Shown: positions 17,846-61,084 of the stretch, piece by piece
Numbering within the stretch: position 1 is the stretch's first letter
How the letters are laid out: each line of letters opens with the position of its first letter
Origin: Bacilli bacterium
GTDB lineage: Bacteria > Bacillota_I > Bacilli_A > RFN20 > CAG-826
Assembly (NCBI GenBank): GCA_050952805.1
Contig: JBMNLM010000001.1
Location: 90,559-154,558 of the forward strand
DNA length: 64,000 nt
Reading direction: 5' to 3'
Translations under genes and position numbers: made by a program
Notes under the pieces: generated by a model
Database searches by the model: none
What the model was told of the DNA's origin: nothing
What the model saw: only the letters and a program-made list of their open reading frames with translations

Positions 17846-17867
17846 TTAGTACATTTTAAGTAATAGC
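17846..17867 (+). repeat. Two-unit 11-bp phased TTAGT repeat upstream of fmt
   Basis: TTAGTACATTT-TAAGTAATAGC; closely resembles the array at 23129. Confidence 0.45.
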
Positions 17868-17918
17868 CATATTTAGAAATAAGCGATTTTTTAGTATAAT
17901 ACTAACGAGGTTAAAAAT

Positions 17919-18860
17919 ATGGAACTTAGTAAGAAAATCCGCATCGCTTATTTAGGCACTCCGGAGATGAGTGCAAAGCTTCTTGAAGGCTTAATTGAAA
18001 ACGGTTTTAATATTGTCGCTGTTGTAGCACAAATTGATAAACCCGTTGGAAGAAAACGGATTTTAATGCCGGTTCCAACAAAAGCTGTAGCACAAAAACA
18101 TAATATTCCTGTCTATCAACCTAGGAAGATACGTGAAGATTATTCGTTTTTAGAAGAAGTTAAACCTGATTTAATTCTTTGCTTTGCTTATGGGCAAATA
18201 ATTCCTGATGAAGTCATTAATTATCCAAAATATGGCTGTCTTAATTTTCATGGTTCATTACTTCCAAAGTATCGCGGAGCTTCGCCAATCCAATATGCAC
18301 TTATGAATAACGATGAAGTAACTGGCGTTACTTTAATGGAAATGGTTAAAGAAATGGATGCAGGAAAGATGTATGCAAAAGAAGTAATTAAAATCGAAAA
18401 AGATGATAATTATTTAACATTAAGTGAGAAAATGATCTCCGCAAGTTTAAAGTTAGCACTTAATAATCTTGAAGCATATGTAAAAGGGGAACTAAAAGGT
18501 GAGGAACAAAATGAAGAAGAAGTAACTTTTGCTCCACCTATTAAACCTAAAGAAGAATATATAAGCGTGAAAGATGATATAAACATTATTGTTGGCAAAG
18601 TTCGTGCTTTTGCACCTCACGTTGGGGCTAAGATTTATCTAGATGATGATCTTATTAAAATCTTAAAAGCTGAGGTTTATTCGACTGATGTTGTTGCGCC
18701 ACTTGGTACAGTTATTAAGGCAGATAAAGAGGCGTTATTAGTGCAAGTAGAAGGAGGAATTTTGAATATTATTTCCCTTCAAAAAGCCGGGAAACTTCCA
18801 TTAACGCATTTTGAATTCTTAAATGGCTACCAAAACGTAAAAGAAAGCAAATTTAAGTAA
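17919..18860 (+). CDS. fmt: Methionyl-tRNA formyltransferase
   Basis: GTPE, DKPVGR, AYGQI, NFHGSLLPKYRGASPIQ, MDAG. Confidence 0.95.
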   Translation: MELSKKIRIAYLGTPEMSAKLLEGLIENGFNIVAVVAQIDKPVGRKRILMPVPTKAVAQKHNIPVYQPRKIREDYSFLEEVKPDLILCFAYGQIIPDEVINYPKYGCLNFHGSLLPKYRGASPIQYALMNNDEVTGVTLMEMVKEMDAGKMYAKEVIKIEKDDNYLTLSEKMISASLKLALNNLEAYVKGELKGEEQNEEEVTFAPPIKPKEEYISVKDDINIIVGKVRAFAPHVGAKIYLDDDLIKILKAEVYSTDVVAPLGTVIKADKEALLVQVEGGILNIISLQKAGKLPLTHFEFLNGYQNVKESKFK

Positions 18861-18913
18861 TAAGTTATTGCTTAGTATTAAATTAGTTTAGAATTAGTAG
18901 TAAATTAGTAAAT
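18861..18913 (+). repeat. Five-unit 11-bp phased TTAGT direct-repeat array
   Basis: TAAGTTATTGC TTAGTATTAAA TTAGTTTAGAA TTAGTAGTAAA TTAGTAAAT at 18861, 18872, 18883, 18894, 18905. Confidence 0.85.
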
Positions 18914-21316
18914 ATGAAACACAAGAGTTTAAGTTTAAGCGTACATGAATTAGTCGATTTCCTTCTTCGAACAGGAAGTATTGACGACCGTGTTTTTAAT
19001 GTTAGTTCAATGACGCGAGGAATAGCTCTTCATACTCATTATCAAAGCAAACAACATGAAAATTATGTAAGTGAATTTCTTTGTGAAGAGACTTTTTATA
19101 TTGATGATTGGGCGGTCACGTTAAGGGGTTTTGCCGATGGCGTGGATTTAACCGCAGAACCACCATTAGTTGAAGAAATAAAATCTACAAACGAAGATAT
19201 AGACCATTTTCATGAAAATTATGAAGAATGGCATTTAGGCCAAGCAAAGTGTTACGCTCTTATGATCGCCCATAAGTATAATTTCGATACTATGCGGATA
19301 AATCTTGTCTATATTCAACAAGAAACAAACGAAAAAAGAGTCCACACCTACGAATATTCACTTCTAGAATTAGAAGAAGATATTGAAAATTATCTAGAAA
19401 AATACTTAAACTTTTACCTTTATGTTTATAACCATAAACTTTTGCGAAATGAAAGTTCAAAAAACATCAAATTTCCCTTTTCTTATCTTCGCAAGGGGCA
19501 AAAAATGATGATTGAGGAAGTAAGTAAAATCGTTGATGAAGGGGGAATTGCCTTAATTGAAGCGCCTACGGGAATTGGAAAAAACAATGGCGGCACTTTA
19601 CCCCGTTACAACATCATTTCATCAAGAGAAAATTGAGAAAATTTTCTATTTTACCGCGAAAGGAAGCACGCAAAATGCCGCATATAATGCTGCAAAAATT
19701 TTAGCGGACAACAATCTAGAAATTAAAACGATTTTAGTTACTGCTAAAGAAAAAATCTGTCCTAAACGACTCAATTATTTGTAATCCCGATGGCTGCCCA
19801 TTTACAAAAAATTACTATAGTAAACTAAAAGATGTGCTTCTTGACATGTTTGTTAATGAAGAATTTTATTCGCGCGATACTATTTTGAAATACGCATTGA
19901 AATACCAAATTTGCCCATTTGAATTACAACTAGATTTATCACTTTATACGGATATTATCATTGCTGACTATAATTATTTATTCGATCCTACCGCGTATTT
20001 ACGAAGATTTTTTGATGATGGATCAATGCAATATTTTACTCTAATTGACGAAGCTCATAATCTAGTAAATCGCGTTCGTGATAGTTATAGCATTACGCTT
20101 AATTTTTATCGTTTTGTTTAAAGTCAAAAAGGAACTTAGAAAGGTAAAAAGTCCCAAATTTAAACGGAGAATTACCGATATTATTAATGAAGCAAAAAAC
20201 ATTAATACATTAATGGAAAATGGCGAAACTGATGTAGATGTTTTATGTCAAAAACTAGACTATAAACTAGAAAAATTCGCTGACCTCGCCTCTGAATTTA
20301 TGATTTTAAATCCTAAATTCAAAAGCGAGCATTTAAAAGAACTTTATTTTGATGTCCTAACTTACTTAAAACTTTCGGAAATTAATGAAGATTATATGAT
20401 AAAAGTTGTGCGACCTTCGCTAAACGGCGAACTACCAATTATTCGAATTTTATGTTTAGATCCGCAAAAATTTATTTATCAAGGATTGTTAAAATCTTAT
20501 GGTTCTGTTTTATTTAGTGCGACTCTAGGACCACGCGAATTTTATGACCGTATGTTAGGGATAAAAGAAGGAGATGCCTCACTAACAATACCAACAGGTT
20601 TTGATAAAAATAATTTAAGTATTTTAGTTGCAACCGATGTTGCGACAACTTATAAAAAACGCGATGAAACTTATGGCGAAGTCGTTGATTATATTTTGGC
20701 GGCAATACGCGCTGATGTTGGAAATTATCTTGTTTTTTGCCCAAGTTATGCATACTTAGAGAAAGTTAGCGAATACCTAGAAACGCTAGATGACTTTATT
20801 TTAATTAAGCAAGAAAAAGATATGAGCGAAGAAGCTCGTCATCGTTTTTTAAGTGAATTTAAAGAAGATCCTAAAGTTACTGTCGTTGGACTTACGGTAA
20901 TGGGCGGAATATTCGCAGAAGGTATAGACCTACCTAACGACCGCTTAAGAGGAGTAGTAATTATTGGCGTCGGATTCCCACGAATTGATGAAGATTTAAA
21001 ATTAATTTCTACGTATTATGAAGAAAAATTTAATAAAAGAACAGCATTTTTTTATACATATGTTTACCCAGGAATTAATCGAATCCTTCAAGCAATGGGT
21101 CGCGTAATTAGAAATGAAAATGATTACGGCTTTGTTTTATTAATCGATAAACGCTACTTAGAAAGGCCATATATTAACTCAATTCGAAGTTATAACGGAA
21201 ATCTTATTTTCGTTGATAATCCCGCCCATGTAAGTAATGAACTTAACAATTTATACGAACGTATTGCGAAAAAAGCGAAAAAATGTGATAATTTGACAAG
21301 TAAGGAAGATAAATAG
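18914..21316 (+). pseudogene. PD-(D/E)XK nuclease-DinG/Rad3 Fe-S helicase fusion, interrupted by three +1 frameshifts (pseudogene or sequencing error)
   Basis: GFADG/EEIKST/QAKCYA nuclease motifs; APTGIGKT, Fe-S Cys, ADYNYLFDP, DEAHN, SATL, EGID, QAMGRVIR spread over four successive ORFs, each offset by +1. Confidence 0.85.
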
Positions 21317-23122
21317 ATGAATCAAAAATATATTCGTAACTTCTCAATTATCGCTCATATCGATCACGGTAAATCGACACTTGCCGACCGCCTTATTGAA
21401 CTTACTGGCGGCGTTAGTAAACGTGAGATGAAGTCGCAACTCCTTGATACTCTTGAACTTGAAAGAGAAAGAGGAATCACGATTAAATTAAATACGGTTA
21501 CTCTAAATTACAAGGCAAGTGACGGACATACATATATTTTAAATTTAATCGACACACCGGGACACGTAGACTTTACGTATGAAGTAAGTCGCTCTTTAGC
21601 AGCATGCGAAGGGGCTCTTTTACTCGTCGATGCTTCGCAAGGCGTAGAAGCACAAACGCTAGCGAATACGTATCTAGCAGTCGATAACGATTTATTTATT
21701 ATTCCTTTAATTAATAAGGTGGACCTTCCTAATGCTCACGTTGACCACGTTAAAAAAGAAATAACCGATAAAATTGGCTTAGATGGCGAAAAAGCTTTAG
21801 AAATTTCTGCGAAAACTGGACAAAATATTGATAAAGTTTTAGAAGCAATTGTAAGCGAAATCCCACATCCTACTGGAAACAAAAATGCGCCTTTAAAAGC
21901 GCTCATTTTTGATAGTTACTATGACCCATATCGCGGCGTTATTATAATGATAAGAATAAAAGATGGTGAAGTTAAAGTTGGCGATGAAATTTTACTCATG
22001 TCTTCTAATAAAAAGTATCTAGTAACGGAAGTTGGGATTAGAACGCCAGTAGAAGTTAAAAAAGATAAGTTAGAAGCTGGCGAAGTCGGATATTTAGCCG
22101 CACAAATTAAAGATATTCGTGAAGTTCACACTGGGGAAACAGTAACGTTAGCGAATAATCGTGCAAGTGAACCACTTCCTGGTTATCGAAAAATTAACCC
22201 AATGGTCTTTTGTGGTCTCTATCCTAGTGAAAGCGAAAAGTATCAAGACTTAAAAGAAGCACTTGAAAAGTTAAGATTAAACGACGCAAGTCTCCAATTT
22301 GAACCAGAAACAAGTCAAGCGCTTGGCTTTGGTTTTCGCTGCGGATTCCTTGGGCTTCTCCATATGGATGTCGTTCAAGAACGATTAGAAAGAGAATATA
22401 ACATCGACTTAATTCTTACCGCACCCAGCGTTATTTATCATGTCTATTTAACAAATGGCGAAAAATTAATCATCGATAATCCTGCAAAATTACCAAAAAG
22501 TGTGCTTATTGATCGTATTGAAGAGCCATTTGTTAAAGCAAAAATTATGACGCCGGAAGAATACGTCGGTCCTTTAATGGAACTTTGCCAAAAAAGAAGA
22601 GGAATTTACGTTAATTTAGAACATTTTGACGATACGAGAATGGTTTTAACTTACGAACTTCCCCTTGCAGAAATCGTCTACAATTTCTTTGATAAATTGA
22701 AAAGTTATAGTAAAGGTTATGCAACTTTTGACTATGAATTTAGCTCATATCATGCTTCTAAATTAGTAAAAATGGATATTTTAATTAATGGCAACGTTGT
22801 TGATGCACTTTCTACAATTGTTTATCGCGAAGACGCTTATAATCGCGGTGTAAACATTTGTCGAAAACTAAAAACAATAATTCCTCGCCAACAATTTGAA
22901 GTACCAATTCAAGCGGCGATTAACAATAAAATTATCGCTAGAACCGACGTAAAAAGCTTAAGAAAAGACGTTTTAAGTAAGTGTTATGGCGGAGATATAA
23001 GCAGAAAACGCAAGCTTTTAGAAAAACAAAAAGCCGGGAAAAAACGCATGAAAATGGTTGGAAGTGTTGAAATTCCTCAAGATGCGTTTATGGCAGTCTT
23101 ATCAATTGATGATGAGATTTAA
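21317..23122 (+). CDS. lepA: Elongation factor 4 (LepA)
   Basis: [43 protein letters not shown]. Confidence 0.98.
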
Positions 23123-23128
23123 TTTAGA

Positions 23129-23161
23129 TTAGTACATATTTAGTAATTAAATAGTTTTTGC
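23129..23161 (+). repeat. Three-unit 11-bp phased TTAGT array between lepA and the Fic-like gene
   Basis: TTAGTACATAT TTAGTAATTAA ATAGTTTTTGC at 23129, 23140, 23151. Confidence 0.7.
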
Positions 23162-23234
23162 CTACATTATTTAGAAAATAATGTTAAAATAACATTGCAA
23201 ATTATTTGAATAAAGGAGATAAGAGAGGTGACAT

Positions 23235-24722: not shown

Positions 24723-24736
24723 AAAGCAGGGAACAT

Positions 24737-26223: not shown

Positions 26224-26250
26224 TTAGCACTTAATAGTTGACACTGCTAA
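26224..26250 (+). promoter_or_regulatory. CIRCE operator 1 (HrcA site) overlapping the -35
   Basis: TTAGCACTT-N9-CACTGCTAA versus consensus TTAGCACTC-N9-GAGTGCTAA. Confidence 0.85.
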
Positions 26251-39886: not shown

Positions 39887-41260
39887 ATGGAAAACAAACA
39901 TCAATTCGATAAAATTGTTAATCACTTAATAACTTATGGCTTTGTATATCAAGGCTCAGAAATATATGGAGGTTTGTCAAATACTTGGGATTATGGACCT
40001 CTTGGTGTTGAAGTAAAGACAAATATCCGCAATATGTGGTGGAAGAAGTTTATTCAAGAATCGCCTTACAACGTTGGTGTTGATGCAGCGATTTTAATGA
40101 ATCCAACGGTTTGGAAAGCTACTGGCCACCTTTCTACATTTAATGATCCACTTATTGACTGTAAAGTTTGTAAAACGCGCCATCGTGCTGATAATTTAAT
40201 TGAAGATCAGTTTAAAGATGTAAACGTTTCAAGTATGGACATTAATGAAATACAAGAATTTATGCGGACAAATCGCGTAAAATGTCCTAATTGCGGATCA
40301 AGTGATTTTACCGATATTCGTCAGTTTAATTTAATGTTTAAAACGCATATTGGCGTAACAGAAGACAATCAAAACGTCGTTTATCTTCGTCCTGAAACCG
40401 CGCAAGGAATCTTTACAAACTTTAAAAATGTTTTAAGAACTAGTCGTAAAAAAATTCCTTTTGGTATCGGTAATGTTGGTAAAGCATTTAGAAACGAGAT
40501 AACTCCTGGAAACTTTATTTTTAGAACTAGAGAGTTTACACAAATGGAATTAGAGTTTTTCTGCGCTCCTGGAACGGATGAAGAATGGTTTAAATACTGG
40601 AAAGATGAATGTATCAGTTTTGTGAAAAATCTCGGAGTTAAGGAAGAAAAACTTCGCTTTAGAGATCACGATGCTAAAGAATTATCATTTTATTCAAAGG
40701 CAACTACAGATATTGAATATTTATTTCCCTTTGGTTGGGGTGAAATTTGGGGTATTGCAAACCGCACAGATTATGACTTAAAGAAACATATGGAATATAG
40801 TGGTGAAAATTTTGAATATTTAGATCCAATTACGAGAGAAACATATGTTCCTTATTGTGTTGAACCATCTGTTGGCTTAGATCGCTTATTATTAATGGTT
40901 TTATCCGATAGTTATGATGAAGAAGAACTTGAAAAAGACTCGCGTGTAATCATGCATTTACACCCTGCCGTTGCTCCTTATAAAGCTGCGGTATTACCAC
41001 TTACTAAAAAACTAGCTGATAAAGCAAAAGAAGTATTTGCTGATTTATCAAAAGATTACATGATAATTTATGATGAAACGGGTAGCATCGGCAAGCGCTA
41101 TCGTCGCAATGATGCTATCGGAACTCCTTATTGTATTACGATAGATTTTGACACTTTGGAGGATGAAAGTGTTACAATTCGCGAACGTGACTCGATGGAA
41201 CAAGTTCGCGTAAAGATTTCTGAATTATCGGCGTATTTAAAAGATAAAGTAAGTTTTTAG
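39887..41260 (+). CDS. glyQS: Glycine--tRNA ligase (homodimeric type)
   Basis: [49 protein letters not shown]. Confidence 0.96.
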
Positions 41261-41289
41261 TAGTTTTCTAGTCTAAAACTAGTCTATTT
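41246..41289 (+). repeat. 11-bp phased (T/C)TAGT array at the glyQS end, before dnaG
   Basis: AAAGTAAGTTT TTAGTAGTTTT CTAGTCTAAAA CTAGTCTATTT at 41246, 41257, 41268, 41279. Confidence 0.7.
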
Positions 41290-50252: not shown

Positions 50253-50402
50253 ATGAGAAATACTATTATTTTAAAATGCACTGTATGCAATGAAGAAAAC
50301 TATATTACTAGCAAAAATAAAAAGAACCATCCTGACCGATTAGAATTAAAAAAATATTGTTCACGGTGTAGAAAAAGTACAGTACATAAGGAAAAAAGAT
50401 AA
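50253..50402 (+). CDS. rpmG: 50S ribosomal protein L33 (Zn-binding type), not in ORF track
   Basis: Manual translation [49 protein letters not shown]; SD GGAGG. Confidence 0.96.
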
Positions 50403-50422
50403 AGCCATTGGCTTTATTTTTT
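50399..50422 (+). terminator. Probable terminator after rpmG
   Basis: ATAAAGCC-ATT-GGCTTTAT followed by T run. Confidence 0.6.
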
Positions 50423-50431
50423 ATACATGTT

Positions 50432-51070
50432 ATGAGAGTTATTACGAAAACTTATCCTATATCTGACTTTTCTTCGAATTTATATATTCTTGTTTTTGAT
50501 GATGGTAGTGCGCTTATTATTGATCCCGGCATCGATAAGAAGAAATATCTTGACGAAATTTTTGCTAATTATGCAAAAGTTCACGCTGTTTTACTAACGC
50601 ACGGCCATTTTGATCATATAAGAGGTGCTAAACCAATTAGTGACCACTATAATTGCCCAATTTATGTTAGTAGTCACGACCGGAGATTTCTAGAAGAACC
50701 CGAGTTTTTTGCCCCTTACTTATTTGGACTAAAGCCGCAAGAGGAAAGAATTTCAGAATTTATCGATATTTCTTTACTAGATTCTATAAATATTAACGGC
50801 CTAGATATAACGATTATAAGCACGCCTTTTCATACTTTAGGCTCGACGTGTTTTTATATTGAAAAAGAAAAACTTCTCTTTAGCGGCGACACATTATTTA
50901 AAGATTCAATAGGCCGAACCGACCTAATTACTAGTGATCCAAATCTTGTTTCAACTAGCTTAAAAAAGCTCCTTGTTTTACCTAACGACACGCTAATTTA
51001 TCCCGGTCACGGCCCTTCTACGAGCTTAGAAGAAGAAAAAGAAAATAATCCCTATCTAATCTCACTTTAA
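50432..51070 (+). CDS. MBL-fold metallo-hydrolase (glyoxalase II-like, YqgX-type)
   Basis: IIDPG, THGHFDH, TPFHT, FSGDTLF, GRTDL, PGHG. Confidence 0.88.
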   Translation: MRVITKTYPISDFSSNLYILVFDDGSALIIDPGIDKKKYLDEIFANYAKVHAVLLTHGHFDHIRGAKPISDHYNCPIYVSSHDRRFLEEPEFFAPYLFGLKPQEERISEFIDISLLDSININGLDITIISTPFHTLGSTCFYIEKEKLLFSGDTLFKDSIGRTDLITSDPNLVSTSLKKLLVLPNDTLIYPGHGPSTSLEEEKENNPYLISL

Positions 51071-51197
51071 ACTACACTTTTAAACGCTAATTATAAAAAG
51101 TTTAATTTATAAATTAAAAAATCTCTTATCGTAAGTGTTTTTTCTTGAGAAAACACCTAGTTATGTGTTATAATTTTGCTTGAAAAAGGAGGATAAA

Positions 51198-51755
51198 ATG
51201 ATTAACGTTACAGAACTACGTCCCGGAAATTATTTTATAGAAGATGGCAATCTTTATAACGTCCTTGATATTTTACTTAATAAAACAGCGATGCGAAAAA
51301 TGATTGCGCGTTTAAAAGTAAAAAACGTAAGAACTGGGGCAATTATGGAATTAACTTTTAATTCTGGCTATCAAATTGAGAGAATTTCAATTGACAAACG
51401 CAATATGACGTATATTTACGATAGTGGTGATGCACTCGTTTTTATGAACAATCAAACGTTTGAACAAATTGAAGTACCAAAATCTTTATTAGAATGGGAA
51501 TTACAATTTTTAGTTGAAAACAGCGAAGTAGAAATTGCTACATATGATGGAGAAATTTTAGGAATTACTCTCCCTGCAAAAGTTGCACTTAAAATCACAG
51601 AATGTGATCCTGGCGTAAGAGGAAATACTGTTCAAAATGCAACAAAAGATGCTGTTACAGAAACGGGATTAAGAATTAGAGTCCCCTTATTTATAGAGGA
51701 AGGAGAAACTGTCTTAGTTCGTACGGATAACGGGAACTATGATGGTAGAGCATAA
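51198..51755 (+). CDS. efp: Elongation factor P
   Basis: PGVRGNT, ETGLRIRVPLFI, Y..RA end; loop reads KTAMRK; ATG 51198 behind AGGAGG. Confidence 0.93.
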   Translation: MINVTELRPGNYFIEDGNLYNVLDILLNKTAMRKMIARLKVKNVRTGAIMELTFNSGYQIERISIDKRNMTYIYDSGDALVFMNNQTFEQIEVPKSLLEWELQFLVENSEVEIATYDGEILGITLPAKVALKITECDPGVRGNTVQNATKDAVTETGLRIRVPLFIEEGETVLVRTDNGNYDGRA

Positions 51756-51756
51756 T

Positions 51757-51981
51757 ATGATTGTTACATTAATGGGAGTCGGTGGAATTGTTGGGATCGG
51801 AATTGGCGCACTCTTTGCCGGACTTATTATTGGTTTTTTCGTTTCACGAAAAGTATTCCAAGTCCAACTAAAGAAAAATCCACCTATTACAGAAAAACAA
51901 GTACGAGCAATGCTAGCGGCTACAGGTAGAAAACCTAGTGAAGCACAAGTGCGTGCCGTCATGCGTTCACTTGGACAATAG
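51757..51981 (+). CDS. yneF: YneF family protein
   Basis: TM helix then LKKNPPITEKQVRAM...GRKPSEAQV. Confidence 0.9.
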   Translation: MIVTLMGVGGIVGIGIGALFAGLIIGFFVSRKVFQVQLKKNPPITEKQVRAMLAATGRKPSEAQVRAVMRSLGQ

Positions 51982-51996
51982 TAGAAGAAAAAACCT

Positions 51997-52027
51997 AAAA
52001 AAAGATAGCACGCAGCTATCTTTTTTT
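51997..52027. terminator. Bidirectional intrinsic terminator after yneF
   Basis: AAAAAAAGATAGC-ACGCA-GCTATCTTTTTTT. Confidence 0.85.
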
Positions 52028-52119
52028 ATTACAAGAAAAAAGCAGCAAAAGAACAAGTAAAAATACAAATTTAATTGAACTGTCAATCAAAAGAGCACAT
52101 TATATGGGCTCATAAAAAT

Positions 52120-52141
52120 AAAAAATCGCTAATAAGCGATT
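52120..52141 (-). terminator. Probable terminator after plsY
   Basis: Minus strand AATCGCT-TATT-AGCGATTTTTT. Confidence 0.6.
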
Positions 52142-52179
52142 ACTTGTAAACGACTAAGAAACTACTAAAATATAACTAA
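52136..52179 (-). repeat. 11-bp phased TTAGT array after plsY (minus strand)
   Basis: Minus strand TTAGTTATATT TTAGTAGTTTC TTAGTCGTTTA CAAGTAATCGC (plus-strand ACTAA at 52175, 52164, 52153; ACTTG at 52142). Confidence 0.8.
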
Positions 52180-52182
52180 TTA

Positions 52183-52851
52183 CTAGATCCAAGTAATTTT
52201 TCTTTCGGTTTTATTCATGATTCTTTTTATGTTGCTACTATGGAGAATAATTAGAATTATTCCAATGATTGTAACGGCTAGTGGATACCAGAAACTACTA
52301 TAGACGAGCGGATAAAATGTTATACCTGTGCCAGGAATAAGAGTGAGCCAACTAGTAATTATCGCAGTAATCGTTCCAACAATACTAGATAGGGAAACCA
52401 TTTTTTTAGCTAAAAGCGTAATTCCAAAGGAAATAAATGTGATTAATAATACAGCCCAATTCGTAGCAAGGAGGAATCCTGCTAAGACACTAACGGCTTT
52501 TCCCCCTTTAAAATCGTAGAAAATTGGAAAGCAATGACCAAGTGCCAGAAATAAACATCCCGAATAAACCGCGTAATCGGCGACTACATAGTCTTGAAGC
52601 GATGTAAAGCGGAAAAGTACGACTAAAATCCAATGATATATCGCCATTTTTAAAATATCGATAATAATTACAATTGCTCCGGCCTTCCCACCAAGGACAC
52701 GACCAGCATTTGTACCTCCAGCGTTACCAGATCCGTGGTCTCTAACATCAACGTTAAAAAAAACTTTTCCAATTATAATTGAAGTTGATAGTGATCCAAG
52801 AAGGTAACCAACAACATTAACGAGAAGATATATTACAATTGCAATTAACAT
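52183..52851 (-). CDS. plsY: Glycerol-3-phosphate acyltransferase PlsY
   Basis: YLLGS, GSGNAGGTN, GHCFP, FKGGKAV, HSSNIKR; divergent from parE. Confidence 0.95.
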   Translation of the reverse strand: MLIAIVIYLLVNVVGYLLGSLSTSIIIGKVFFNVDVRDHGSGNAGGTNAGRVLGGKAGAIVIIIDILKMAIYHWILVVLFRFTSLQDYVVADYAVYSGCLFLALGHCFPIFYDFKGGKAVSVLAGFLLATNWAVLLITFISFGITLLAKKMVSLSSIVGTITAIITSWLTLIPGTGITFYPLVYSSFWYPLAVTIIGIILIILHSSNIKRIMNKTERKITWI

Positions 52852-53076: not shown

Positions 53077-55047
53077 ATGGAAAATAATAAAAGAGAAATT
53101 GCCTATACCGCCGATTCAATTGACGTTCTTGAAGGTCTTGAAGGCGTAAGAAAACGACCCGCGATGTACATAGGTTCAACTAACACTGTTGGCCTACATC
53201 ATTTAATTTGGGAAGTCGTAGACAATGCTGTTGACGAAGCGATGAGTGGATACGGCGATAAAATTTCGATTACAATTCATAAAGATGGATCCGTTAGTGT
53301 TCAAGACGAAGGAAGAGGAATTCCAACTGGTATTAATAAAAAAACTGGTGTACCTGCAGTACATCTAATTTTCTCTCGTCTTCACACTGGCGGAAAATTT
53401 AGCGAAAGTGCTTATAAAACGAGCGCAGGTCTTCACGGAGTTGGTGTAACTGTAACGAACGCTCTAAGTGAATGGCTCGATGTTACGATTTGGCGCGATG
53501 GTAAAATTCATCATATTCGCTATGAAAATGGCGGCCAACTTGTCGTTCCTTTAGAAGTAATCGGCAATACTAATCGCCACGGGACTTTAGTTACCTTTAA
53601 ACCTGATAAAACGATATTTAAAACTGTTGATTTTAAGTGGGATACAATTACATCCCATATTCAAGAAAGTGCCTTTTTACTTAAAAAAGTTCGATTTTAT
53701 GTAAAGGATGAGCGAACTGGTCTAGAAGAAACGTATTATTACGAAAACGGTCTTCTAGAATATATGGAAATCATAAATCGTAATAAAAAACCCTTAGGTT
53801 CAATTATTTATTTTGAAGAATCTTATGAAGGTACGAACGCTAATAAGCTTGATTTTCCAATTGAAATGGAAATCGCGATGCAGTGGTGCGTTGAAGATTA
53901 TGGCGAAACTGTTTTATCCTATGTAAATAACGTAAGAACAAAAGACGGCGGGACTCATGAAACTGGTTTTCGAACAGGTCTAACACGCTGCGTAAATGAT
54001 TTTGCGATTGAAAATAATTTATTAAGAGGAAAAACGAAACTTGAAGGAAGCGATATCCGTGAAGGTTTAACGGCGATTATTTCGCTTCGAATTCCTGAAG
54101 GTCCGCTGGAATTTGAAGGACAAACGAAGGGAAAACTTGGAACTCCTGAAGCCTTAAGTGCAGTAAATAACTTTATTTACAATAAATTTATGTATTATTT
54201 GCATGAAAATCGTGAATTTGCCGTTAATCTTGTAAAAAAATGTCAAGATGCGCAAACGGCAAGACTTGCAGCCCGCAAAGCAAAAGAAACTTTGCGAAAA
54301 ACAAAAAAACCGCGAAATGAGATCATATTAAGCGGGAAATTAACACCTGCTCAAAGTAAAGATTTTAAGAAAAATGAACTCTTTATCGTTGAAGGGGATA
54401 GTGCAGGAGGCACAGCTCGAACTGGTCGCGATCGCGAGTTTCAAGCAATTTTACCACTTCGCGGAAAACCACTAAATACAGATACAAGTACTGTTGAAAA
54501 GGTCCTAAAAAACGAGGAATTTGCGACACTAATTAATACAATTGGCGCTGGCTTTGGCAAAGATTTTGATATTGATGAATGTCATTATGGAAAAATTATT
54601 ATTATGACTGACGCTGATACCGATGGTGCGCACATTCAAACCTTACTTTTAACATTTTTCTATCATTATATGAAACCTTTATTAAAAGCAGGAATGGTCT
54701 ATCTTGCCGCTCCGCCGCTATATCGTGTTTATAAAAATGTTAAAGGAAAACTAATTTATGCCTATGCATGGGACGATAAAACGCTAGAAGAAGCAAAAGA
54801 AAAAATTGGTCCTGGATACAAAATTAATCGTTATAAAGGCTTAGGAGAAATGAATGCTGAGCAGCTTTGGGAAACGACGATGAATCCTCGAACGAGAAAT
54901 TTAATTAGAATAAACATTGAAGATCCTCTACTCGTTGAAATGCGTGTCCACGTTCTTATGGGAAAAGATTCTTCGGTAAGAAGAAAGTGGATTGAAGAAA
55001 ACGTTGATTTTAATGCATATGACGAATTCATTGAGGAGGTTAAATAA
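53077..55047 (+). CDS. parE: DNA topoisomerase IV subunit B
   Basis: VRKRPAMYIGS, GLHGVG, EGDSAGG, DADTDGAHI, RYKGLGEMN; plsY-parE-parC synteny. Confidence 0.9.
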   Translation: MENNKREIAYTADSIDVLEGLEGVRKRPAMYIGSTNTVGLHHLIWEVVDNAVDEAMSGYGDKISITIHKDGSVSVQDEGRGIPTGINKKTGVPAVHLIFSRLHTGGKFSESAYKTSAGLHGVGVTVTNALSEWLDVTIWRDGKIHHIRYENGGQLVVPLEVIGNTNRHGTLVTFKPDKTIFKTVDFKWDTITSHIQESAFLLKKVRFYVKDERTGLEETYYYENGLLEYMEIINRNKKPLGSIIYFEESYEGTNANKLDFPIEMEIAMQWCVEDYGETVLSYVNNVRTKDGGTHETGFRTGLTRCVNDFAIENNLLRGKTKLEGSDIREGLTAIISLRIPEGPLEFEGQTKGKLGTPEALSAVNNFIYNKFMYYLHENREFAVNLVKKCQDAQTARLAARKAKETLRKTKKPRNEIILSGKLTPAQSKDFKKNELFIVEGDSAGGTARTGRDREFQAILPLRGKPLNTDTSTVEKVLKNEEFATLINTIGAGFGKDFDIDECHYGKIIIMTDADTDGAHIQTLLLTFFYHYMKPLLKAGMVYLAAPPLYRVYKNVKGKLIYAYAWDDKTLEEAKEKIGPGYKINRYKGLGEMNAEQLWETTMNPRTRNLIRINIEDPLLVEMRVHVLMGKDSSVRRKWIEENVDFNAYDEFIEEVK

Positions 55048-55049
55048 AA

Positions 55050-57662
55050 ATGGCAAAAAAGACGAAAAAACAAAAAAAGTCCGAAAATACCGAACCATTT
55101 GTTGAAAATATTATTGACTTCCCAATGGAAGAAATCATGGGTGAACGGTTTGGGATTTACGCTAAAGAAGTTATTCAAAACCGGGCAATTCCTGATGCTC
55201 GCGATGGCTTAAAACCTGTTCAAAGACGGATTATTTTCTCAATGTACCAAGAAGGTAATCTTTCGAATCGTCCAACAAAGAAATGTGCTCATACAGTCGG
55301 TACTGTTATGGGTAAATATCACCCTCATGGTGATAGCTCAATTTATGAAGCTCTTGCAAGAATGTCGCAAGATTGGAACTTAAGATATCCTTTAATTGAC
55401 TTTCAAGGAAATAACGGTTCAATCGATGGCGATAGTCCGGCATCTTATAGATATACTGAATCGCGCCTTAGCGAACTAGCAGAAACACTCACATTTGAAA
55501 TTGAAAAAAATACTGTCGATCAACAGCTTACTTTTGATGATGATAGTTTTGAACCTGTCGTTTTACCTGCACGCCTTCCTAATCTATTATTAAACGGTTC
55601 GCAAGGTATCGCGGTCGCAGTTGCAACAGAAATTCCTCCTCATAACATGGGAGAAGTTATTGATGCAATCATTTATAGAATTAAGCATAAAAACGCGACA
55701 GTTAGCGACTTACGTAAGTTTATTAAAGGCCCCGATTTCCCAACTGGAGGCATCGTTTATAAAAGCGAAGGCCTTGATGAAATTTATGAAACAGGCCGCG
55801 GAAGAATTGAAATTGAAGCAAAAACGGAAATCGTACAAGCAGGAAAAATTCAACAAATTATCATTTCTGAAATTCCCTATAAAGAAAATAAATCAAATAT
55901 TCTTCGCGAAATTGGCGAAATTATCGAAAAGAAAGAAGTCGATGGTCTTCTTGATGTTCGCGATGAAAGTGACCGAAGTGGCATAAGAATTGCTATCGAT
56001 ATTCGCAAAGACGCAAATGCAGAAATTATTTTAGAATATTTACTAAATAAGACGAAGTTACGCGTAAGTTATAGTGCTAATATCGTCGCAATTGCAAATA
56101 ATCGTCCGCAAACGCTAGATTTACTTAAACTTGTTGATACGTATATTGATCATCAAGTCGAAGTTATAACGCGCGGCACAACTTTTGACTTAGAAAAAAA
56201 TAAAGCACGTCTTCATATCGTTGATGGCTTAATTAAAGCAATTAGTGTCGTTGATGAAGTCGTTGCTTTAATTAGAAGTTCAAGTAATAAACAAAATGCA
56301 AAAGAAAACTTAATTGCAAAATTTGCTTTTACAAGTGAACAAGCTGAAGCAATTTTAGCATTGCAACTATATCGCTTAACAAACACAGATATAACGCTTT
56401 TAGAAAAAGAAAAAGAAGCAACGGAATTAGAAATTAAACGCTTAAGCGAAATTTTAGAAAATCGTTCGGCGTTAAATGACTTATTAATAGCTGACTTAAA
56501 AGCATACAATAAGAAATTCGGTGATGAAAGACGGACAAAAATTACAGAAAACGGTGAAGTTATTGAAATCGATAAACGTGATTTAATCGCCGATGAAGAT
56601 GTAATGGTCGTTATCACTCGCGACGGTTATATTAAACGAAGTTCACTAAAATCTTATAAAGCAAGTGGCGATAACGCGCTTCCTGGTATAAAAAGTGGCG
56701 ATATTCTTATAATGGGCGATGAAGCTAATACAAAAGATGTCTTGCTCGTCTTTACTAATAAAGGAAATTATTGCTATATCCCGGTTTATGATATTCACGA
56801 AGGAAAATGGAAAGATGAAGGCAAACATATAAATTATCTTTGCAGTATCTCGCCAGATGAAAAACTAATTAAAGCCTTTGTCATCAAAGAATTCCGTGAA
56901 GATCTCTATTTTGTCTTAGTAACGAAAAAAGGCAAAATCAAACGTTCGCAAATTAGTGAATTTGTCGCGCTTCGTTATTCACGTCCACTAATTTGTATTC
57001 GTCTAAGTAAAGGCGATGCACTAAGTGACGTTGTTGCAACGAGCGGAAATAGTGATCTTCTTGTTGTAACTAGAAACGGGCATGCAACTTTTTATAACGA
57101 AAATGAATTAACAGTTTTAAGTTTAAGTGCCGCGGGTGTAAAAGCTATTTCGCGACTTAAAAATGATGAAATTATTGGCCTCGTTTCGCTTCATCCTCAA
57201 GAGAGGGTACACCTAGGTATAATTACCGATAATGGACACGTAAGACTCGTAGATACGGCTAGTTTTGAAAACACAGCGCGACTAGGCAAAATTCAACATG
57301 TTATGCGCGTATTTAAGAGCGACATTCATAAAATTGTTGGTCTATTACCACTAGAAAAACGCTTAGTCGATAGCCTTATAATTTACTGTCTTACAAATAG
57401 CAACGACATCGTTGCCCTACCTGTAAGCGAGCTAAAATTAATGCAAGTTGATAAGTATGCAAAACAAAATATTAAAGAGTTACAAACTGGCGAAACATTT
57501 ACTGGTGTTTACTCGTTTTTAGTCCGCTCAATTAGTGAAAAAACAAAGGCTTACGAACCGCCACAAATTAAAGAAGTCGAGGAATTAAAAGAAAGTAAAC
57601 CAGAAAAACATGATGAAGTTGGTTACGAACAAATGTCAATTTTTGATATCCTAGACGACTAA
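55050..57662 (+). CDS. parC: DNA topoisomerase IV subunit A
   Basis: RAIPDARDGLKPVQRR, HPHGDSSIY, YRYTE; no GyrA-box seen. Confidence 0.9.
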   Translation: MAKKTKKQKKSENTEPFVENIIDFPMEEIMGERFGIYAKEVIQNRAIPDARDGLKPVQRRIIFSMYQEGNLSNRPTKKCAHTVGTVMGKYHPHGDSSIYEALARMSQDWNLRYPLIDFQGNNGSIDGDSPASYRYTESRLSELAETLTFEIEKNTVDQQLTFDDDSFEPVVLPARLPNLLLNGSQGIAVAVATEIPPHNMGEVIDAIIYRIKHKNATVSDLRKFIKGPDFPTGGIVYKSEGLDEIYETGRGRIEIEAKTEIVQAGKIQQIIISEIPYKENKSNILREIGEIIEKKEVDGLLDVRDESDRSGIRIAIDIRKDANAEIILEYLLNKTKLRVSYSANIVAIANNRPQTLDLLKLVDTYIDHQVEVITRGTTFDLEKNKARLHIVDGLIKAISVVDEVVALIRSSSNKQNAKENLIAKFAFTSEQAEAILALQLYRLTNTDITLLEKEKEATELEIKRLSEILENRSALNDLLIADLKAYNKKFGDERRTKITENGEVIEIDKRDLIADEDVMVVITRDGYIKRSSLKSYKASGDNALPGIKSGDILIMGDEANTKDVLLVFTNKGNYCYIPVYDIHEGKWKDEGKHINYLCSISPDEKLIKAFVIKEFREDLYFVLVTKKGKIKRSQISEFVALRYSRPLICIRLSKGDALSDVVATSGNSDLLVVTRNGHATFYNENELTVLSLSAAGVKAISRLKNDEIIGLVSLHPQERVHLGIITDNGHVRLVDTASFENTARLGKIQHVMRVFKSDIHKIVGLLPLEKRLVDSLIIYCLTNSNDIVALPVSELKLMQVDKYAKQNIKELQTGETFTGVYSFLVRSISEKTKAYEPPQIKEVEELKESKPEKHDEVGYEQMSIFDILDD

Positions 57663-57734
57663 AAACGCCAAGATAAAAGCACTTTATGTTTTAATTTAAC
57701 CTCATTTATTATAAAATATAAATGAGGTTTTATT

Positions 57735-58259
57735 ATGGGCGCTTACACTCCAACGTATTATGCTAAATCAATTTATGAAGTTCCAAGCGATTTTTATAAA
57801 CAAAACGGCATAAAAAATTTGTTTATCGATTTAGATAATACGCTCGATTCATTTCGCACTCTTGAGCCAACAGAAAATGCGATTAATCTCATTAATGAAT
57901 TAAAAAAACACGATTATACGATTATTATTATTTCTAACAATACCGAAAAACGTGTTAAACATTATGCGACAATCTTAGGCGTAAATTATATGTATTCAAC
58001 GCGTAAGCCATTTGCATTTAAGTTTAAAAAAATGATGGAAGAAAATAACTTAGATCCAAATGAAACAATTTTAATCGGCGATCAGCTCGTTACGGATGTA
58101 AGGGCGAGTAAGCGAGCAAAAATACGCTCATTACTTACAGAAAAACTCGTTAAAGAAGATCAATGGACAACGCACATTAATCGCCTTTTTGATCGACCAA
58201 TTAGAAGACATTTAAAAAGAAAAAATAAATTAGATAGTTGGAGGAATCACTATGAGTAA
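57735..58259 (+). CDS. yqeG: YqeG HAD IIIA phosphatase
   Basis: DLDNTL, SNN, KP, IGDQLVTD. Confidence 0.9.
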   Translation: MGAYTPTYYAKSIYEVPSDFYKQNGIKNLFIDLDNTLDSFRTLEPTENAINLINELKKHDYTIIIISNNTEKRVKHYATILGVNYMYSTRKPFAFKFKKMMEENNLDPNETILIGDQLVTDVRASKRAKIRSLLTEKLVKEDQWTTHINRLFDRPIRRHLKRKNKLDSWRNHYE

Positions 58260-59382
58260 ATCACTAAAGAAGGCAAAACGCTGCTATGGATGTGGGGCTG
58301 TTTTGCAAACTGAAGACCCAGAATTAGAAGGATACGTATCAAAAGACGTCTCGCTAGAAAATGATGTCGTTCTTTGTAATAATTGCTATAGTTTACGAAA
58401 TTATAACGAAGAAACGCACTTAAAACCGATAATTTCCCAAGAGTTTTTCAAAATTATTGACAATGCTAAAAAGACAAATTCTCTTTTTGTCTACATCGTT
58501 GACCTCTTTAATTTTGAATCGAGTTTTATAAGTGAAATTAACGAAGCTCTAAAAGGTTCAACTGTATTACTCGTTGCTAATAAACGTGATTTACTTCCAA
58601 GTAGTGTAAAAGATGAAAAACTTTTCGAATATGTTAAAAAGCGTACGGAAGAAGCTGGTCTAATAGTAAGTGAAATTATGCTTGCTAGTTCAACAACTAA
58701 TTACAATATTGATTTGTTTTTAGAAAGAATGGCTGAACTTCGAAATAATCGTAATGTTTACGTTATTGGATCAGTAAGTAGCGGAAAAAGTTCGTTTATC
58801 AACACTGTTTTACGTGTTTATAAAAACGAAACATCGCATTACATTTCAACGAGTATTTACCCAAATACGACGCTTAAAGTCGTTGAAATTCCAATTGACG
58901 AAACGACCTCACTTTATGAAACACCTGGGCTTGCTATTAACAATAGCGTTTTAGGCCTATTTGAAAAGGAAGTAATTCGAACAATTGTCCCAAGAAAAGA
59001 AATTAAACCGCGAGTTTATTATCAAATCCCCGCAAATTATAGTCTATTAATTGGCGGTCTAGCACGCATTGATTTTCTTAGCGGTTCAAGAACAACATTT
59101 AAACTCTATCTTGCTCCTGGAATTAAAGTCGTCCGAATTCCTACACCAAGAGCAAGTAAAACTTTTGAAAACTTAATTAAAAATGAAAAAACCGTCCCAA
59201 TTTCTAAAAAAATTAAAGGAATTCAAGATTTAGATGCGTTTGATATTAGTTTTTCTGGAAATGATAATGTTGATATTTCAATAGCAGGTTTAGGTTGGAT
59301 TAGTTTTAAAGAAAAGAATCAAGAAATTCGTGTCTTTGCTCCCCAAGGCGTAGCAGTCACGACTAACCAAGCGAAAATTTAG
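58252..59382 (+). CDS. yqeH: Ribosome biogenesis GTPase YqeH
   Basis: CYGCG...CNNC zinc finger, NKRD, GKSSFIN, TT, ETPG, GGLARID, IAGLGW. Confidence 0.88.
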   Translation: MSKSLKKAKRCYGCGAVLQTEDPELEGYVSKDVSLENDVVLCNNCYSLRNYNEETHLKPIISQEFFKIIDNAKKTNSLFVYIVDLFNFESSFISEINEALKGSTVLLVANKRDLLPSSVKDEKLFEYVKKRTEEAGLIVSEIMLASSTTNYNIDLFLERMAELRNNRNVYVIGSVSSGKSSFINTVLRVYKNETSHYISTSIYPNTTLKVVEIPIDETTSLYETPGLAINNSVLGLFEKEVIRTIVPRKEIKPRVYYQIPANYSLLIGGLARIDFLSGSRTTFKLYLAPGIKVVRIPTPRASKTFENLIKNEKTVPISKKIKGIQDLDAFDISFSGNDNVDISIAGLGWISFKEKNQEIRVFAPQGVAVTTNQAKI

Positions 59383-59390
59383 GTGATGAT

Positions 59391-59684
59391 ATGTTAACAA
59401 ATAAGCAAAAGAAGTATTTAAAAGGCGAAGCGCATCACATAAGCGCTCAATATCAAATTGGCAAAAATTTAATTGGCCCAACGCAAATTGACTTGTTCGA
59501 TAAAGCATTAACTGCAAGAGAACTAATTAAAATTAGTGTCCAAAAAAGCGCAGTTAATGATATGGAACAAATTATTGAACACTTAACGAGCGTTTTAAAT
59601 GCTGAATTAATCGATTTACGCGGTCATATAATTACTTTATACCGGCAAAATAAACTAAATCCGAGGTATACTCTCCCAAAATGA
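59391..59684 (+). CDS. yhbY: YhbY (CRM domain) RNA-binding protein
   Basis: MLTNKQKKYLK, QIGK, RELIKI. Confidence 0.9.
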   Translation: MLTNKQKKYLKGEAHHISAQYQIGKNLIGPTQIDLFDKALTARELIKISVQKSAVNDMEQIIEHLTSVLNAELIDLRGHIITLYRQNKLNPRYTLPK

Positions 59685-60766
59685 AACGAATAATTTTTGG
59701 TGGTTCCTTTGATCCAATTCATTTTGGGCATTTAAAGATGGCAGAGCGGGCCAAAGACTTTGTTAACGCTGATATTGTTGAATTTGTCATTGCCCCGACC
59801 TCAAGATGGAAGAAGTATTATGCTGCAAGTAATCATCGTTTAGAAATGACAAATTTAATGGTTACTAACCTTACGTGGGCACGTGTTTCCGCGCTTGAAA
59901 TCGAAAGAAACGCAGAAGTTAATTATACTTTTGATACGCTTATTGAATACAAGGAAAAGTATCCTGCTGATGAGCTATTCCTTTTAATTGGCGGCGATCA
60001 AGCCGTTTTATTTCCAAAATGGCATAAAGCTAAAGAAATTTCTAAACTAGCAAAAATTCTTGTTTATGAACGCCTCCCAGAATACGTAATCGATAAGAAT
60101 ATAATTAATGAATATAATATGACGATTATAAACGGTGAAAGTCTACCTTATTCATCAACTTCGATTCGCAATTTAGAAAATTTAGGGACTAAAGAAGAAG
60201 TAATTGACTATATTACGAGTAATGACCTATATTTTATGGAGAAAATCGATAAATACATTAGTAATAAGCGAAGAAGTCACTCTTTAGAAGTTGCAAAACT
60301 TGCAAGAACAATAGCAAAAGCTAATAATCTAGATGAAGAAAAGGCGTTTATATGCGGCTTATTACACGATATTGGTAAAGAAGTAAAAGAAGATAAAGCA
60401 AAAGCGATAATGAACGAACATTATACGCAATATGCACATTTATATCGCTGGCTTCATCACCAGTTCATTGGTGAATATATCGCTAAAAACGACTTTAACA
60501 TCAGTGATCCTTCAATGTTAAGGGCAATTGAGTTTCATGCGACCGGTATTGATAATATGGATTGGTTAGGTATGGTTATTTACTCATCAGATAAAATTGA
60601 GCCAACAAGAGGATTTGATTCATCATCACTAATTAATGCCTGCCTTAAAGATTATCATGAAGGATTTATTGAAGTGCTAGAAGCAAACCGCGAATTTTTA
60701 TTAAGTAAGAATTACGATGTCCATAATGAACTGACAACAGCGTGTATGGATTTCTATTTAAAATAA
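59681..60766 (+). CDS. nadD: NadD nicotinate-nucleotide adenylyltransferase fused to YqeK HD-domain Ap4A hydrolase
   Basis: FGGSFDPIHFGH, IGGD, SSTSIR, then RRSHS, LLHDIGK, HATG, DKIEP. Confidence 0.9.
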   Translation: MKRIIFGGSFDPIHFGHLKMAERAKDFVNADIVEFVIAPTSRWKKYYAASNHRLEMTNLMVTNLTWARVSALEIERNAEVNYTFDTLIEYKEKYPADELFLLIGGDQAVLFPKWHKAKEISKLAKILVYERLPEYVIDKNIINEYNMTIINGESLPYSSTSIRNLENLGTKEEVIDYITSNDLYFMEKIDKYISNKRRSHSLEVAKLARTIAKANNLDEEKAFICGLLHDIGKEVKEDKAKAIMNEHYTQYAHLYRWLHHQFIGEYIAKNDFNISDPSMLRAIEFHATGIDNMDWLGMVIYSSDKIEPTRGFDSSSLINACLKDYHEGFIEVLEANREFLLSKNYDVHNELTTACMDFYLK

Positions 60767-60792
60767 GAAAAATAAAATTTTAGGAAATTTAG

Positions 60793-60825
60793 AAAATGCT
60801 TGATGAATAACTCAAGCATTTTTTT
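60793..60825 (+). terminator. Intrinsic terminator after nadD-yqeK
   Basis: AAAATGCTTGA-TGAATAAC-TCAAGCATTTTTTT. Confidence 0.8.
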
Positions 60826-60904
60826 AAAAATTCGCCCTGATTTATAAATTGATGATGAATTAGTAAAGTTATTAACAAAAGAAGATAATTTTCGATTATA
60901 GTTA

Positions 60905-60932
60905 AGTTGTAATAATACATATTATGTTAACT
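60905..60932 (+). other. dif: dif site (XerC/D chromosome dimer resolution)
   Basis: AGTTGTAATAA-TACATA-TTATGTTAACT; right arm matches the Firmicutes XerD arm TTATGTWAACT; 11-6-11 layout; lies at the gene-orientation switch near parEC. Confidence 0.85.
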
Positions 60933-61002
60933 AAGATATAAAATAGTACGATTTTATGGGCATGACGAAAACGAGTAATGAAATATTACCCTTTTTACCG
61001 TT

Positions 61003-61056
61003 CTATGCAGTGTGGTAAAACAGTGGGTTATCCACAGTTTTCCACAACTTGCATAG
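61003..61056. promoter_or_regulatory. Imperfect inverted repeat carrying tandem DnaA boxes
   Basis: TTATCCACA (61028-61036) and TTTTCCACA (61038-61046) inside the CTATGCA...TGCATAG hairpin. Confidence 0.7.
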
Positions 61057-61084
61057 TACTAATTAACTACTAATTAACTACTTT
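61047..61084 (-). repeat. 11-bp phased TTAGT array beside the DnaA boxes
   Basis: Minus strand AAAGTAGTTAA TTAGTAGTTAA TTAGTACTATG CAAGT; plus strand TACTAATTAAC x2. Confidence 0.8.

Follow-up and report, generated by a model that had tools for sequence, protein, structure and literature searches.

In the 64,000 nucleotides analysed here, in the following called the window (C1:90559-154558 of the source genome G000, a Bacilli bacterium; contig JBMNLM010000001.1 of assembly GCA_050952805.1), several intergenic spacers contain short arrays in which the core TTAGT recurs head to tail every 11 base pairs (bp), which raises the question what reads such arrays and what they are for. The arrays are a real family, and selection maintains them throughout an entire order of bacteria with small genomes. 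We consider it on the whole probable, if by no means secure, that they are the cognate sites of an autoregulated protein composed of a pseudo-Fic domain and a winged helix-turn-helix (wHTH) domain, and that they mark a domain of about 100 kb centred on the chromosome dimer resolution site dif rather than form a replication fork trap. The source assembly comprises 979,641 bp in three contigs with 34.5% G+C and is 93% complete. Genes were called as longest open reading frames (ORFs), so that distances from an array to a start codon are minimal estimates, and the relatives used for comparison are kin and mostly fragmented metagenome-assembled genomes (MAGs).

Exact TAGT chains of at least three units occur seven times at a period of 11 bp in the whole source genome and zero or one time at each other period from 6 to 16, and the two chains of at least four units both have period 11. 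When an array is defined by at least three units, each with at most one mismatch to TTAGT and at least two of them perfect, the source genome contains five arrays at period 11 compared to 0, 1, 2, and 0 at periods 10, 12, 13, and 14, while 16 genomes pooled (2,454,814 bases) contain 66 compared to 4, 0, 3, and 2 at periods 9, 10, 12, and 13. Dinucleotide-preserving shuffles of intergenic DNA gave a mean of 0.06 and a maximum of one array for the source genome (200 shuffles of 80,865 bases; five observed) and a mean of 0.04 for the relative G017 (11 observed). The five long arrays of the original prediction are all present, far more frequent than in shuffled intergenic DNA and exact in their 11-bp period, which alone is enriched against every other period tested; its description of a phased direct-repeat family of the kind bound by winged-helix proteins is thereby supported as to the reality of the family. 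The plus-strand array next to dnaG, placed by it at 41246, starts 11 nt further on, and the two-unit copy upstream of fmt, which it had counted as a member, is not retained because TTAGT pairs are unenriched at period 11 (10 genome-wide in G000 compared to 2–15 at other periods). Base frequencies in the core, counted from 227 units, are T.90, T.94, A.97, G.98, T.99, and A.71, and the other five positions are merely AT-rich; in orthologous spacers the phase is kept and the spacer letters are not. A conserved core between divergent spacer letters therefore indicates selection on core and phase, and this speaks against recent slippage. A chance, compositional or slippage origin is rejected on the basis of the period controls, the shuffles, and the divergent spacers.

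Where on the chromosome does this selection act? Cumulative GC skew of the source genome is lowest near 620 kb and highest at C1 150–152 kb, the latter corresponding to about 60–61 kb in the window, and a dif-like Xer recombination site lies at this switch (Table 1), as was to be expected from the earlier suggestion that the terminus falls within the window. The dif pattern alone proved unspecific in controls and was accepted only beside a skew switch, a PemK-like gene or the array module described below; in array-less genomes its matches lie mostly within coding sequence, and only that of G031 looked real. The seven good arrays of the source genome are found at −42, −38, −20, −8.8, +0.15, +7.9, and +16 kb from dif. 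In G017, which belongs to a different genus with 25.6% G+C and whose whole main contig of 879,070 bp was scanned, 16 arrays have a period of 11 and none has one of 10, 12, 13 or 14, and 12 of the 16 lie within 142–248 kb, around the skew maximum at 182–184 kb and dif at 184.4 kb. Within 70 kb of dif these two near-complete genomes together have 16 of their 21 arrays, in a zone that holds 11.4% (G000) and 10.3% (G017) of the intergenic DNA. Around the skew switch, arrays also cluster on contig pieces of G033 (another family), G018, and G014, and likewise on the dif-bearing contigs of 11 further genomes. The proposed tie to the terminus region is thus supported in G000, G017, and 14 more genomes, an even spread around the chromosome is not seen, and, as expected for sites of the MatP/matS type, the arrays are confined to the terminus domain. 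Three units of TTAGT-N6 with at most one mismatch are matched in 23 of the 24 other genomes of the same family, and the reversed control pattern gives 0–1 matches in most genomes and up to four in G008 and five in G015. G031 (family f8) serves as negative control: the genome is devoid of arrays, and no TTAGT array adjoins its good dif site.

The terminus region is syntenic between G000 and G017, and arrays occur at the orthologous junctions lepA 3′ end, glyS–dnaG (also in G004, G007, and G014), plsY 3′ end, parC–yqeG, xseB–dxs, aspS–transketolase, and behind the last gene before dif. Three points favour position over gene as the determinant: arrays without counterpart in the other of these two genomes also fall near dif, arrays flank dif on both sides within 100–330 bp in families f7 and f3, and the array next to dif is part of a fixed module. 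On the XerC side of dif in f7 the neighbouring ORFs have no homologue in G000. The order of the module is array, 4–27 bp, a DnaA-box-like 9-mer, and then dif, XerD arm first, at +88 to +121 bp. Seven of the eight dif-adjacent arrays scored in seven relatives lie 88–121 bp from dif, and a second dif-adjacent array of G026 is located on the other, XerC-arm side. A match of 8/9 to the DnaA box accompanies five of the eight, compared to a background of about 0.3 per kb on both strands, and similar boxes lie between array and dif in G017, G018, G014, G008, G033, and G036. In the window, one 9-mer of the cluster is an exact match to the DnaA-box consensus. These distances stay constant while the upstream gene varies, being PemK-like in most f1 genomes, an unrelated ORF of 180 aa in G017, and others in f3 and f7.

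Which protein could read these sites? The best candidate, by adjacency, co-occurrence, and fold, is the Fic-wHTH protein that the original prediction had proposed for a binding assay. This protein, P0001, is encoded directly behind the array at the lepA 3′ end, the most widely conserved array class, with at least two units in 19 of the 19 genomes examined, which represent five families (2–4 units in 12/12 full-length loci and in 7/7 loci of f3, f4, f5, and f7). This array is presumed to be the autoregulatory operator of the gene. Under a looser rule, a sigma-70-like promoter follows it in 13 of 18 loci, and in 11 of these 13 the −35 hexamer begins 6–19 bp past the last core (7 bp in six; −2 bp in G009 and 45 bp in G016). 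P0001 combines a Fic-like fold, whose catalytic motif is degenerate, with a winged helix at the C-terminus, the two being joined by a disordered acidic linker. An AlphaFold (AF2) model built from 60 sequences has a predicted local distance difference test score (pLDDT) of 81.3 with the acidic linker at 336–381 disordered, and Foldseek places this predicted structure next to SoFic (3ZCN/3EQX, E 3e-7) and then 4RGL, 8CIL, and 7CB8, which are Fic proteins with C-terminal wHTH domain; 26 PDB chains match at E ≤0.001, and all listed at that cut-off are Fic-family proteins. Pfam detects Fic below threshold in three of four homologues (E 0.003–0.036) and, also below threshold, a winged helix of the BlaI type (E 0.0014). 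While the Fic catalytic motif reads HxFx(D/E)GNGRxxR in PMC9755527, the aligned stretch of P0001 is Y(I/V)(K/R/N)P(F/Y)xxxxxE(I/T/L), with no His, GNG or Arg, and the Fic domain is predicted to be catalytically dead. The C-terminal domain is the best conserved part of the protein. Its recognition helix AYETARTSMD is identical or one residue off in 11 homologues from five families, with YETARTSM invariant, and the TTAGT core upstream of the gene is equally conserved in the same genomes.

The distribution of the gene follows that of the arrays. Among 41 relatives it is present in all 23 with at least three array matches, and the eight relatives without it have 0–1 matches. In 201 genomes of the order, 180 carry the gene and 88 have at least three array matches, 87 of these 88 with the gene. 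The exception, G051 (family f8), has a repeat with a 22-bp period and alternating TTAGT/TTTGT cores at three or more loci (C1:24460-24508, C16:13198-13246, and C16:35302-35372 of that genome), which is different from and unrelated to the TTAGT arrays. A class-wide sample showed the gene in 26 of the 28 genomes belonging to the order and in one of 222 outside, there as a match to a C-terminal fragment only, and the array-less G031 gives only a weak and probably unrelated match. A search of 5.8 billion proteins returned at least 501 clusters, the few named ones being a “hypothetical protein” of Bacilli or Erysipelotrichaceae MAGs; the family is order-restricted and unannotated. As to other binders, the 93% complete source genome gave no match to RTP (PF02334) or Tus (PF05472) at E ≤1, none to MatP (PF06303), and none to the OmpR-type Trans_reg_C domain (PF00486) at E ≤0.01, which leaves the OmpR/PhoB-type regulator that had been put forward beside P0001 without a candidate gene there. 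The other genes of the terminus block were rejected as binders, since they belong to housekeeping Pfam families or lack signs of DNA binding.

From adjacency, co-occurrence, and co-conservation we infer that P0001 binds the arrays. Several copies would sit head to tail on the double-stranded array, one protomer per 11-bp unit and probably in a cooperative manner, with TTAGTA read by the recognition helix and the five AT-rich bases serving as spacer. The binder would thus be this order-specific protein of 495 aa, controlling its own gene via the array just upstream of the promoter. In f1, f3, and f7, further arrays of 3–5 units would have spread into intergenic spacers every 4–10 kb over approximately ±40–60 kb around dif, including the fixed module of array, DnaA-box-like motif, about 100 bp, and dif, and the whole set would mark the replication-terminus domain for the protein as parS and matS mark theirs. 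A purpose at the level of a chromosome domain rather than of single promoters is suggested because the distribution is dif-centred, the dif module is fixed, and the flanking genes have no functional theme.

Several observations weigh against this proposal. The pairing of P0001 with the arrays rests on adjacency and co-occurrence among kin genomes, and a stricter consensus promoter scan found no promoter between array and gene in G000. Genomes of genus g42 (f1), genus g58 (f3), and family f5 carry the gene with few or no three-unit arrays, so that the spread around the terminus is not obligatory for the role of the protein. For the conserved junction classes, synteny between genera confounds position with gene neighbourhood. 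Moreover, many arrays fill the whole spacer from a stop codon to the next ribosome-binding site: at glyS–dnaG the stop codon TAG lies within the first unit and the ribosome-binding site follows directly after the array, and xseB–dxs leaves no room for a promoter. Transcription therefore passes through arrays inside operons, and binding cannot be a tight block. Orientation was counted for 54 intergenic arrays within 70 kb of dif in 16 genomes, which as kin are not independent; 44 have the sense orientation relative to the upstream gene and 10 the antisense one, a bias not expected of an orientation-blind landmark. Finally, known Fic proteins with helix-turn-helix (HTH) domain bind inverted repeats as dimers, as described in PMC9755527, whereas the arrays are direct repeats.

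The main rival explanation retains protein and sites and assigns them to ordinary gene control. P0001 would act as activator, roadblock or insulator between cistrons in a regulon at operon junctions, and the clustering around dif would reflect a conserved block of genes. We regard this as credible and yet unlikely. It agrees with the array at the protein's own promoter, which has the usual position of an activator or repressor site, with the location of most arrays just after a stop codon and before the next ribosome-binding site or promoter, mostly in sense orientation, with the synteny of the region, and with families f4 and f5, which keep only the operator at the protein's own gene. However, fmt, lepA, glyS/dnaG, plsY, parC, xseB/dxs, aspS/transketolase, and relA/hisS share no theme, the plsY array is followed by a terminator and not by a gene start, the arrays unshared between G000 and G017 are near dif as well, and the spacing from the dif-adjacent array to the DnaA-box-like motif and to dif stays the same despite a differing upstream gene.

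Less likely again is a reading in which P0001 is a dead AMPylase turned into an organiser of the terminus, its wHTH domain coating the TTAGTA arrays and its silent Fic domain keeping the grip on a former substrate in division or decatenation. Candidate partners would be FtsZ and ParE/GyrB, and dif would be tethered to the septum or to topoisomerase IV. ParE and GyrB are targets of FicT toxins, and two arrays beside dif enclose the genes that we call parE and parC on account of length and gene order. The Fic domain of CccR is described to modify FtsZ (PMC9755527). If true, this would be an independently invented functional analogue of the MatP “Ter linkage” in an uncultured order of small-genome Bacilli.

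The remaining explanations depend on how the arrays are oriented with respect to dif. Arrays on the plus strand to the left and on the minus strand from 52 kb on, as originally reported, are indeed found inside the window; over the whole set 35 of the 54 arrays point toward dif. The postulated switch of polarity at the terminus does not hold up, as orientation follows the upstream gene (44/54) better than dif. The plsY array, placed between stop codon and intrinsic terminator, is directed away from dif in 11 genomes, at −8.5 to −12.5 kb, and on the other arm the aspS–transketolase array points outward at +9.5 to +12.6 kb in G010, G015, G020, and G024 (an array of G014 at +12.4 kb at this junction is known from the pattern scan only). 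At the latter junction G018 has the reverse orientation, the lepA 3′ array is inverted in G017, and G004 has a minus-strand array at −8.76 kb and a plus-strand array at −3.27 kb. GC skew switches at dif and not between the plus and minus arrays. With outward arrays on both arms and flips at single junctions, any single polarity rule would stall both forks short of each other, and a strong polar fork trap is therefore untenable; the same facts also strain the readings of the arrays as RNA elements and as FtsK guides.

An RNA element in 3′ untranslated regions and intercistronic spacers, the second of the two original proposals, would offer UUAGUA as target to a nuclease or an RNA-binding protein, or would provide stop codons in three frames. 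The sense bias would suit it, the more so as the median distance from the stop codon to the start of a sense array is about 5 nt, even in intergenic gaps of 150–450 nt, and so would the plsY array between stop codon and terminator. Contigs from RNA libraries (metatranscriptomes) bridge the plsY array (X18, 51745-52846; X19, 50257-52828), which proves little, the public runs being usable only as contigs that give neither transcript ends, strand nor level; at the same contig level, four public runs list no indels at arrays between strains. We nevertheless hold an RNA role to be very unlikely. It is weakened by the 10 antisense arrays, of which the aspS–transketolase class recurs in four genera, and by orientation that differs between genera at the same junction; one dif-flanking array of G030 lies beyond a 22-bp palindrome that, judged by eye, is possibly a terminator. 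A general RNA signal would not be expected to be confined to one tenth of the chromosome, and a stop-codon trap needs no invariant TTAGTA.

An equally slight probability attaches to guides for the dif machinery, that is, FtsK-orienting sequences or Xer accessory sequences. The concentration around dif, with most arrays pointing toward it, and the fixed module on the XerD-arm side would be expected, and the source genome has one FtsK with gamma domain as well as a gene for an Xer-type recombinase 4 kb from dif. FtsK and Xer are universal, however, while arrays are found only where the pseudo-Fic/wHTH gene occurs. FtsK gamma reads single short words, unlike tandem 11-bp units, and an FtsK-orienting sequence would be a strand-skewed word on both arms of the whole genome pointing toward dif, whereas the arrays lie near dif and some conserved ones point away from it; those 40–60 kb from dif cannot be Xer accessory sequences. 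Least of all do we believe in the polar fork trap of the original prediction, in which bound arrays would admit forks to the terminus and block their exit: about 8–12 sites around the terminus, mostly dif-pointing, inverted arrays closely flanking dif in f7 and f3, and the inherent polarity of a direct repeat would fit, but strong barriers at the outward conserved arrays (plsY 3′ at −8.7 kb, aspS–transketolase at about +12 kb) would keep forks from replicating the dif region, a single polarity rule would arrest the two forks of G004 at points separated by 5.5 kb, the arrays at the lepA and aspS junctions do not have the same orientation in all genera, the skew switch does not separate plus from minus arrays, neither RTP nor Tus was found in the source genome, and arrays within operons are transcribed through.

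Table 1. Arrays, terminus features, and neighbouring genes in and near the window (positions within the window unless prefixed with C1).
Feature	Position	Strand	Description
Two-unit copy	17846-17861	+	TTAGT, TAAGT; upstream of fmt; indistinguishable from chance
Five-unit array	18861-18915	+	TAAGT, then four exact TTAGT; fills the spacer from the fmt stop codon to the next ORF
Gene after the fmt array	18914-21316	+	three ORFs: PD-(D/E)XK, 240 aa; DEAD_2, 95 aa; helicase-C, 412 aa
Three-unit array	23129-23161	+	TTAGT, TTAGT, ATAGT; between the lepA stop codon and the pseudo-Fic/wHTH gene
Gene of P0001	23235-24722	+	495 aa; directly downstream of the lepA array
Three-unit array	41257-41289	+	TTAGT, CTAGT, CTAGT; fills the glyS–dnaG spacer
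Intrinsic-terminator-like hairpin	52124-52141	−	immediately behind the plsY array, with a T run after it
Array at plsY	52136-52179	−	three exact units and one degenerate; between the plsY stop codon and the intrinsic terminator
parE, parC (topoisomerase IV)	53077-57662	+	3–8 kb from dif; names from length and gene order, no family search on these two ORFs
dif-like Xer site	60905-60932	+	arms of 11 bp around a centre of 6 bp; between convergent genes at the GC-skew switch
Three DnaA-box-like 9-mers	61011-61046		partly inverted arrangement; between array and dif, about 85 bp from dif
dif-adjacent array	61052-61084	−	AAAGT, TTAGT, TTAGT; downstream of the PemK/MazF-like gene
PemK/MazF-like gene	61103-61729	−	about 180–208 aa; no visible antitoxin gene
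Xer-type tyrosine recombinase gene	C1:155303-156190 (L001:745-1632)	−	4 kb from dif; adjoining a 399-aa gene
Array beyond the window	C1:159343-159380	−	
Array beyond the window	~C1:167665-167708	−	

Some features of the neighbourhood deserve mention in their own right. The arrays at window 52147-52179 and C1:159348-159380 (L001:4790-4822) are identical in 30 of 33 bases, far above other pairs of arrays, and lie 16.6 kb apart on either side of dif; their similarity suggests a recent copy or conversion event. The three ORFs behind the fmt array correspond in position to a single ORF of 784 aa in G017, the reciprocal best hit of the helicase-C piece, and are probably a broken or frameshifted gene for a DinG-like helicase-nuclease. 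In several genera the outward-pointing plsY array lies on one side of parE and parC and a parC 3′ array on the other. The pair formed by the Xer-type recombinase gene and the 399-aa gene is found beside dif in f7 and f3 as well. In 16 genomes of the order, among them G031 of the array-less family, the XerD-arm side of dif is occupied by the PemK/MazF-like gene at a distance of 150–250 bp; its product was rejected as binder because its distribution mismatches that of the arrays, the gene not being found in the array-bearing G017, G033, G030, and G036 and being present beside dif in the array-less G031. Near-identical DNA was found in runs of 11 studies comprising anaerobic digester, bioreactor, biogas fermenter, sludge, wastewater, and landfill metagenomes, and several of these runs may be the source sample.

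The dif-centred arrays can be compared with several known systems. In MatP/matS and ParB/parS, one DNA-binding protein recognises about 8–30 sites in one replication-defined domain, and its gene lies inside or near this domain. The arrays are similar in that they are confined to one chromosome domain with the gene of the candidate binder in it. They differ from both systems in being restricted to intergenic spacers with a sense bias and in consisting of phased direct repeats instead of single palindromes (of 13 bp in MatP/matS), and no MatP homologue was found in the source genome. In Tus-Ter and RTP-Ter the sites lie near the terminus, one of them next to the gene of the binder itself, and RTP belongs to the winged-helix proteins; number of sites, proximity to the terminus, and the array adjoining the gene of the candidate binder are alike, while the orientation rule does not hold for the arrays and RTP and Tus are absent from the matches in G000. 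With operators of the OmpR/PhoB type the arrays have in common a core of 5–6 bp with a spacer of 5–6 bp, two to five units, a period of 10–11 bp, and, putatively, reading by a winged helix; unlike these regulators, P0001 has no receiver domain, and Trans_reg_C was not found in G000.

The excerpted literature on repeats, on terminus and dif, and on Fic plus winged helix contains no description of TTAGT or TTAGTA arrays or of the P0001 family. We know of no terminus-recognising proteins outside enterobacteria (MatP, Tus), Bacillus (RTP, XerD sites), and Caulobacter (ZapT). What is proposed here is a concrete pair of protein and site, namely an 11-bp phased site with a 6-bp core and an order-specific protein of 495 aa with at least 501 sequence clusters, whose sites would delimit some 100 kb around dif as a domain; the genomes in question are reduced ones of about 1 Mb from anaerobic digesters. 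If its role is plain gene control, the pair would still be a new regulator and operator with an unusual site architecture; if the domain reading is true, it would give a cellular role to the widespread and unexplained wHTH tail of Fic proteins and would represent a pseudo-enzyme recruited to DNA. The closest relatives in structure are CccR, SoFic, and CbFic2, with which P0001 has in common the two-domain fold of Fic and C-terminal wHTH (SoFic being the top and CbFic2, 8CIL, among the Foldseek matches). It is reported that CccR of Yersinia pseudotuberculosis, a Fic protein with C-terminal HTH domain and the 3EQX fold, represses its own promoter by direct binding (PMC9755527), and that CbFic2 of Coxiella binds DNA via its C-terminal HTH domain and is regulated by this binding (PMC10628234). 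A site in the own promoter region, as in CccR (PMC9755527), has its putative counterpart in the array conserved upstream of the P0001 gene in 19/19 genomes. P0001 departs from the Fic family in its Pfam similarity, which is below cut-off, and in the replacement of the Fic catalytic motif. The CccR site is a 10-bp inverted repeat with a spacer of 26 bp, according to PMC9755527, while that of P0001 would be made of head-to-tail 11-bp repeats, and the 5–30 extra dif-centred arrays per genome set the present system apart from CccR, SoFic, and CbFic2.

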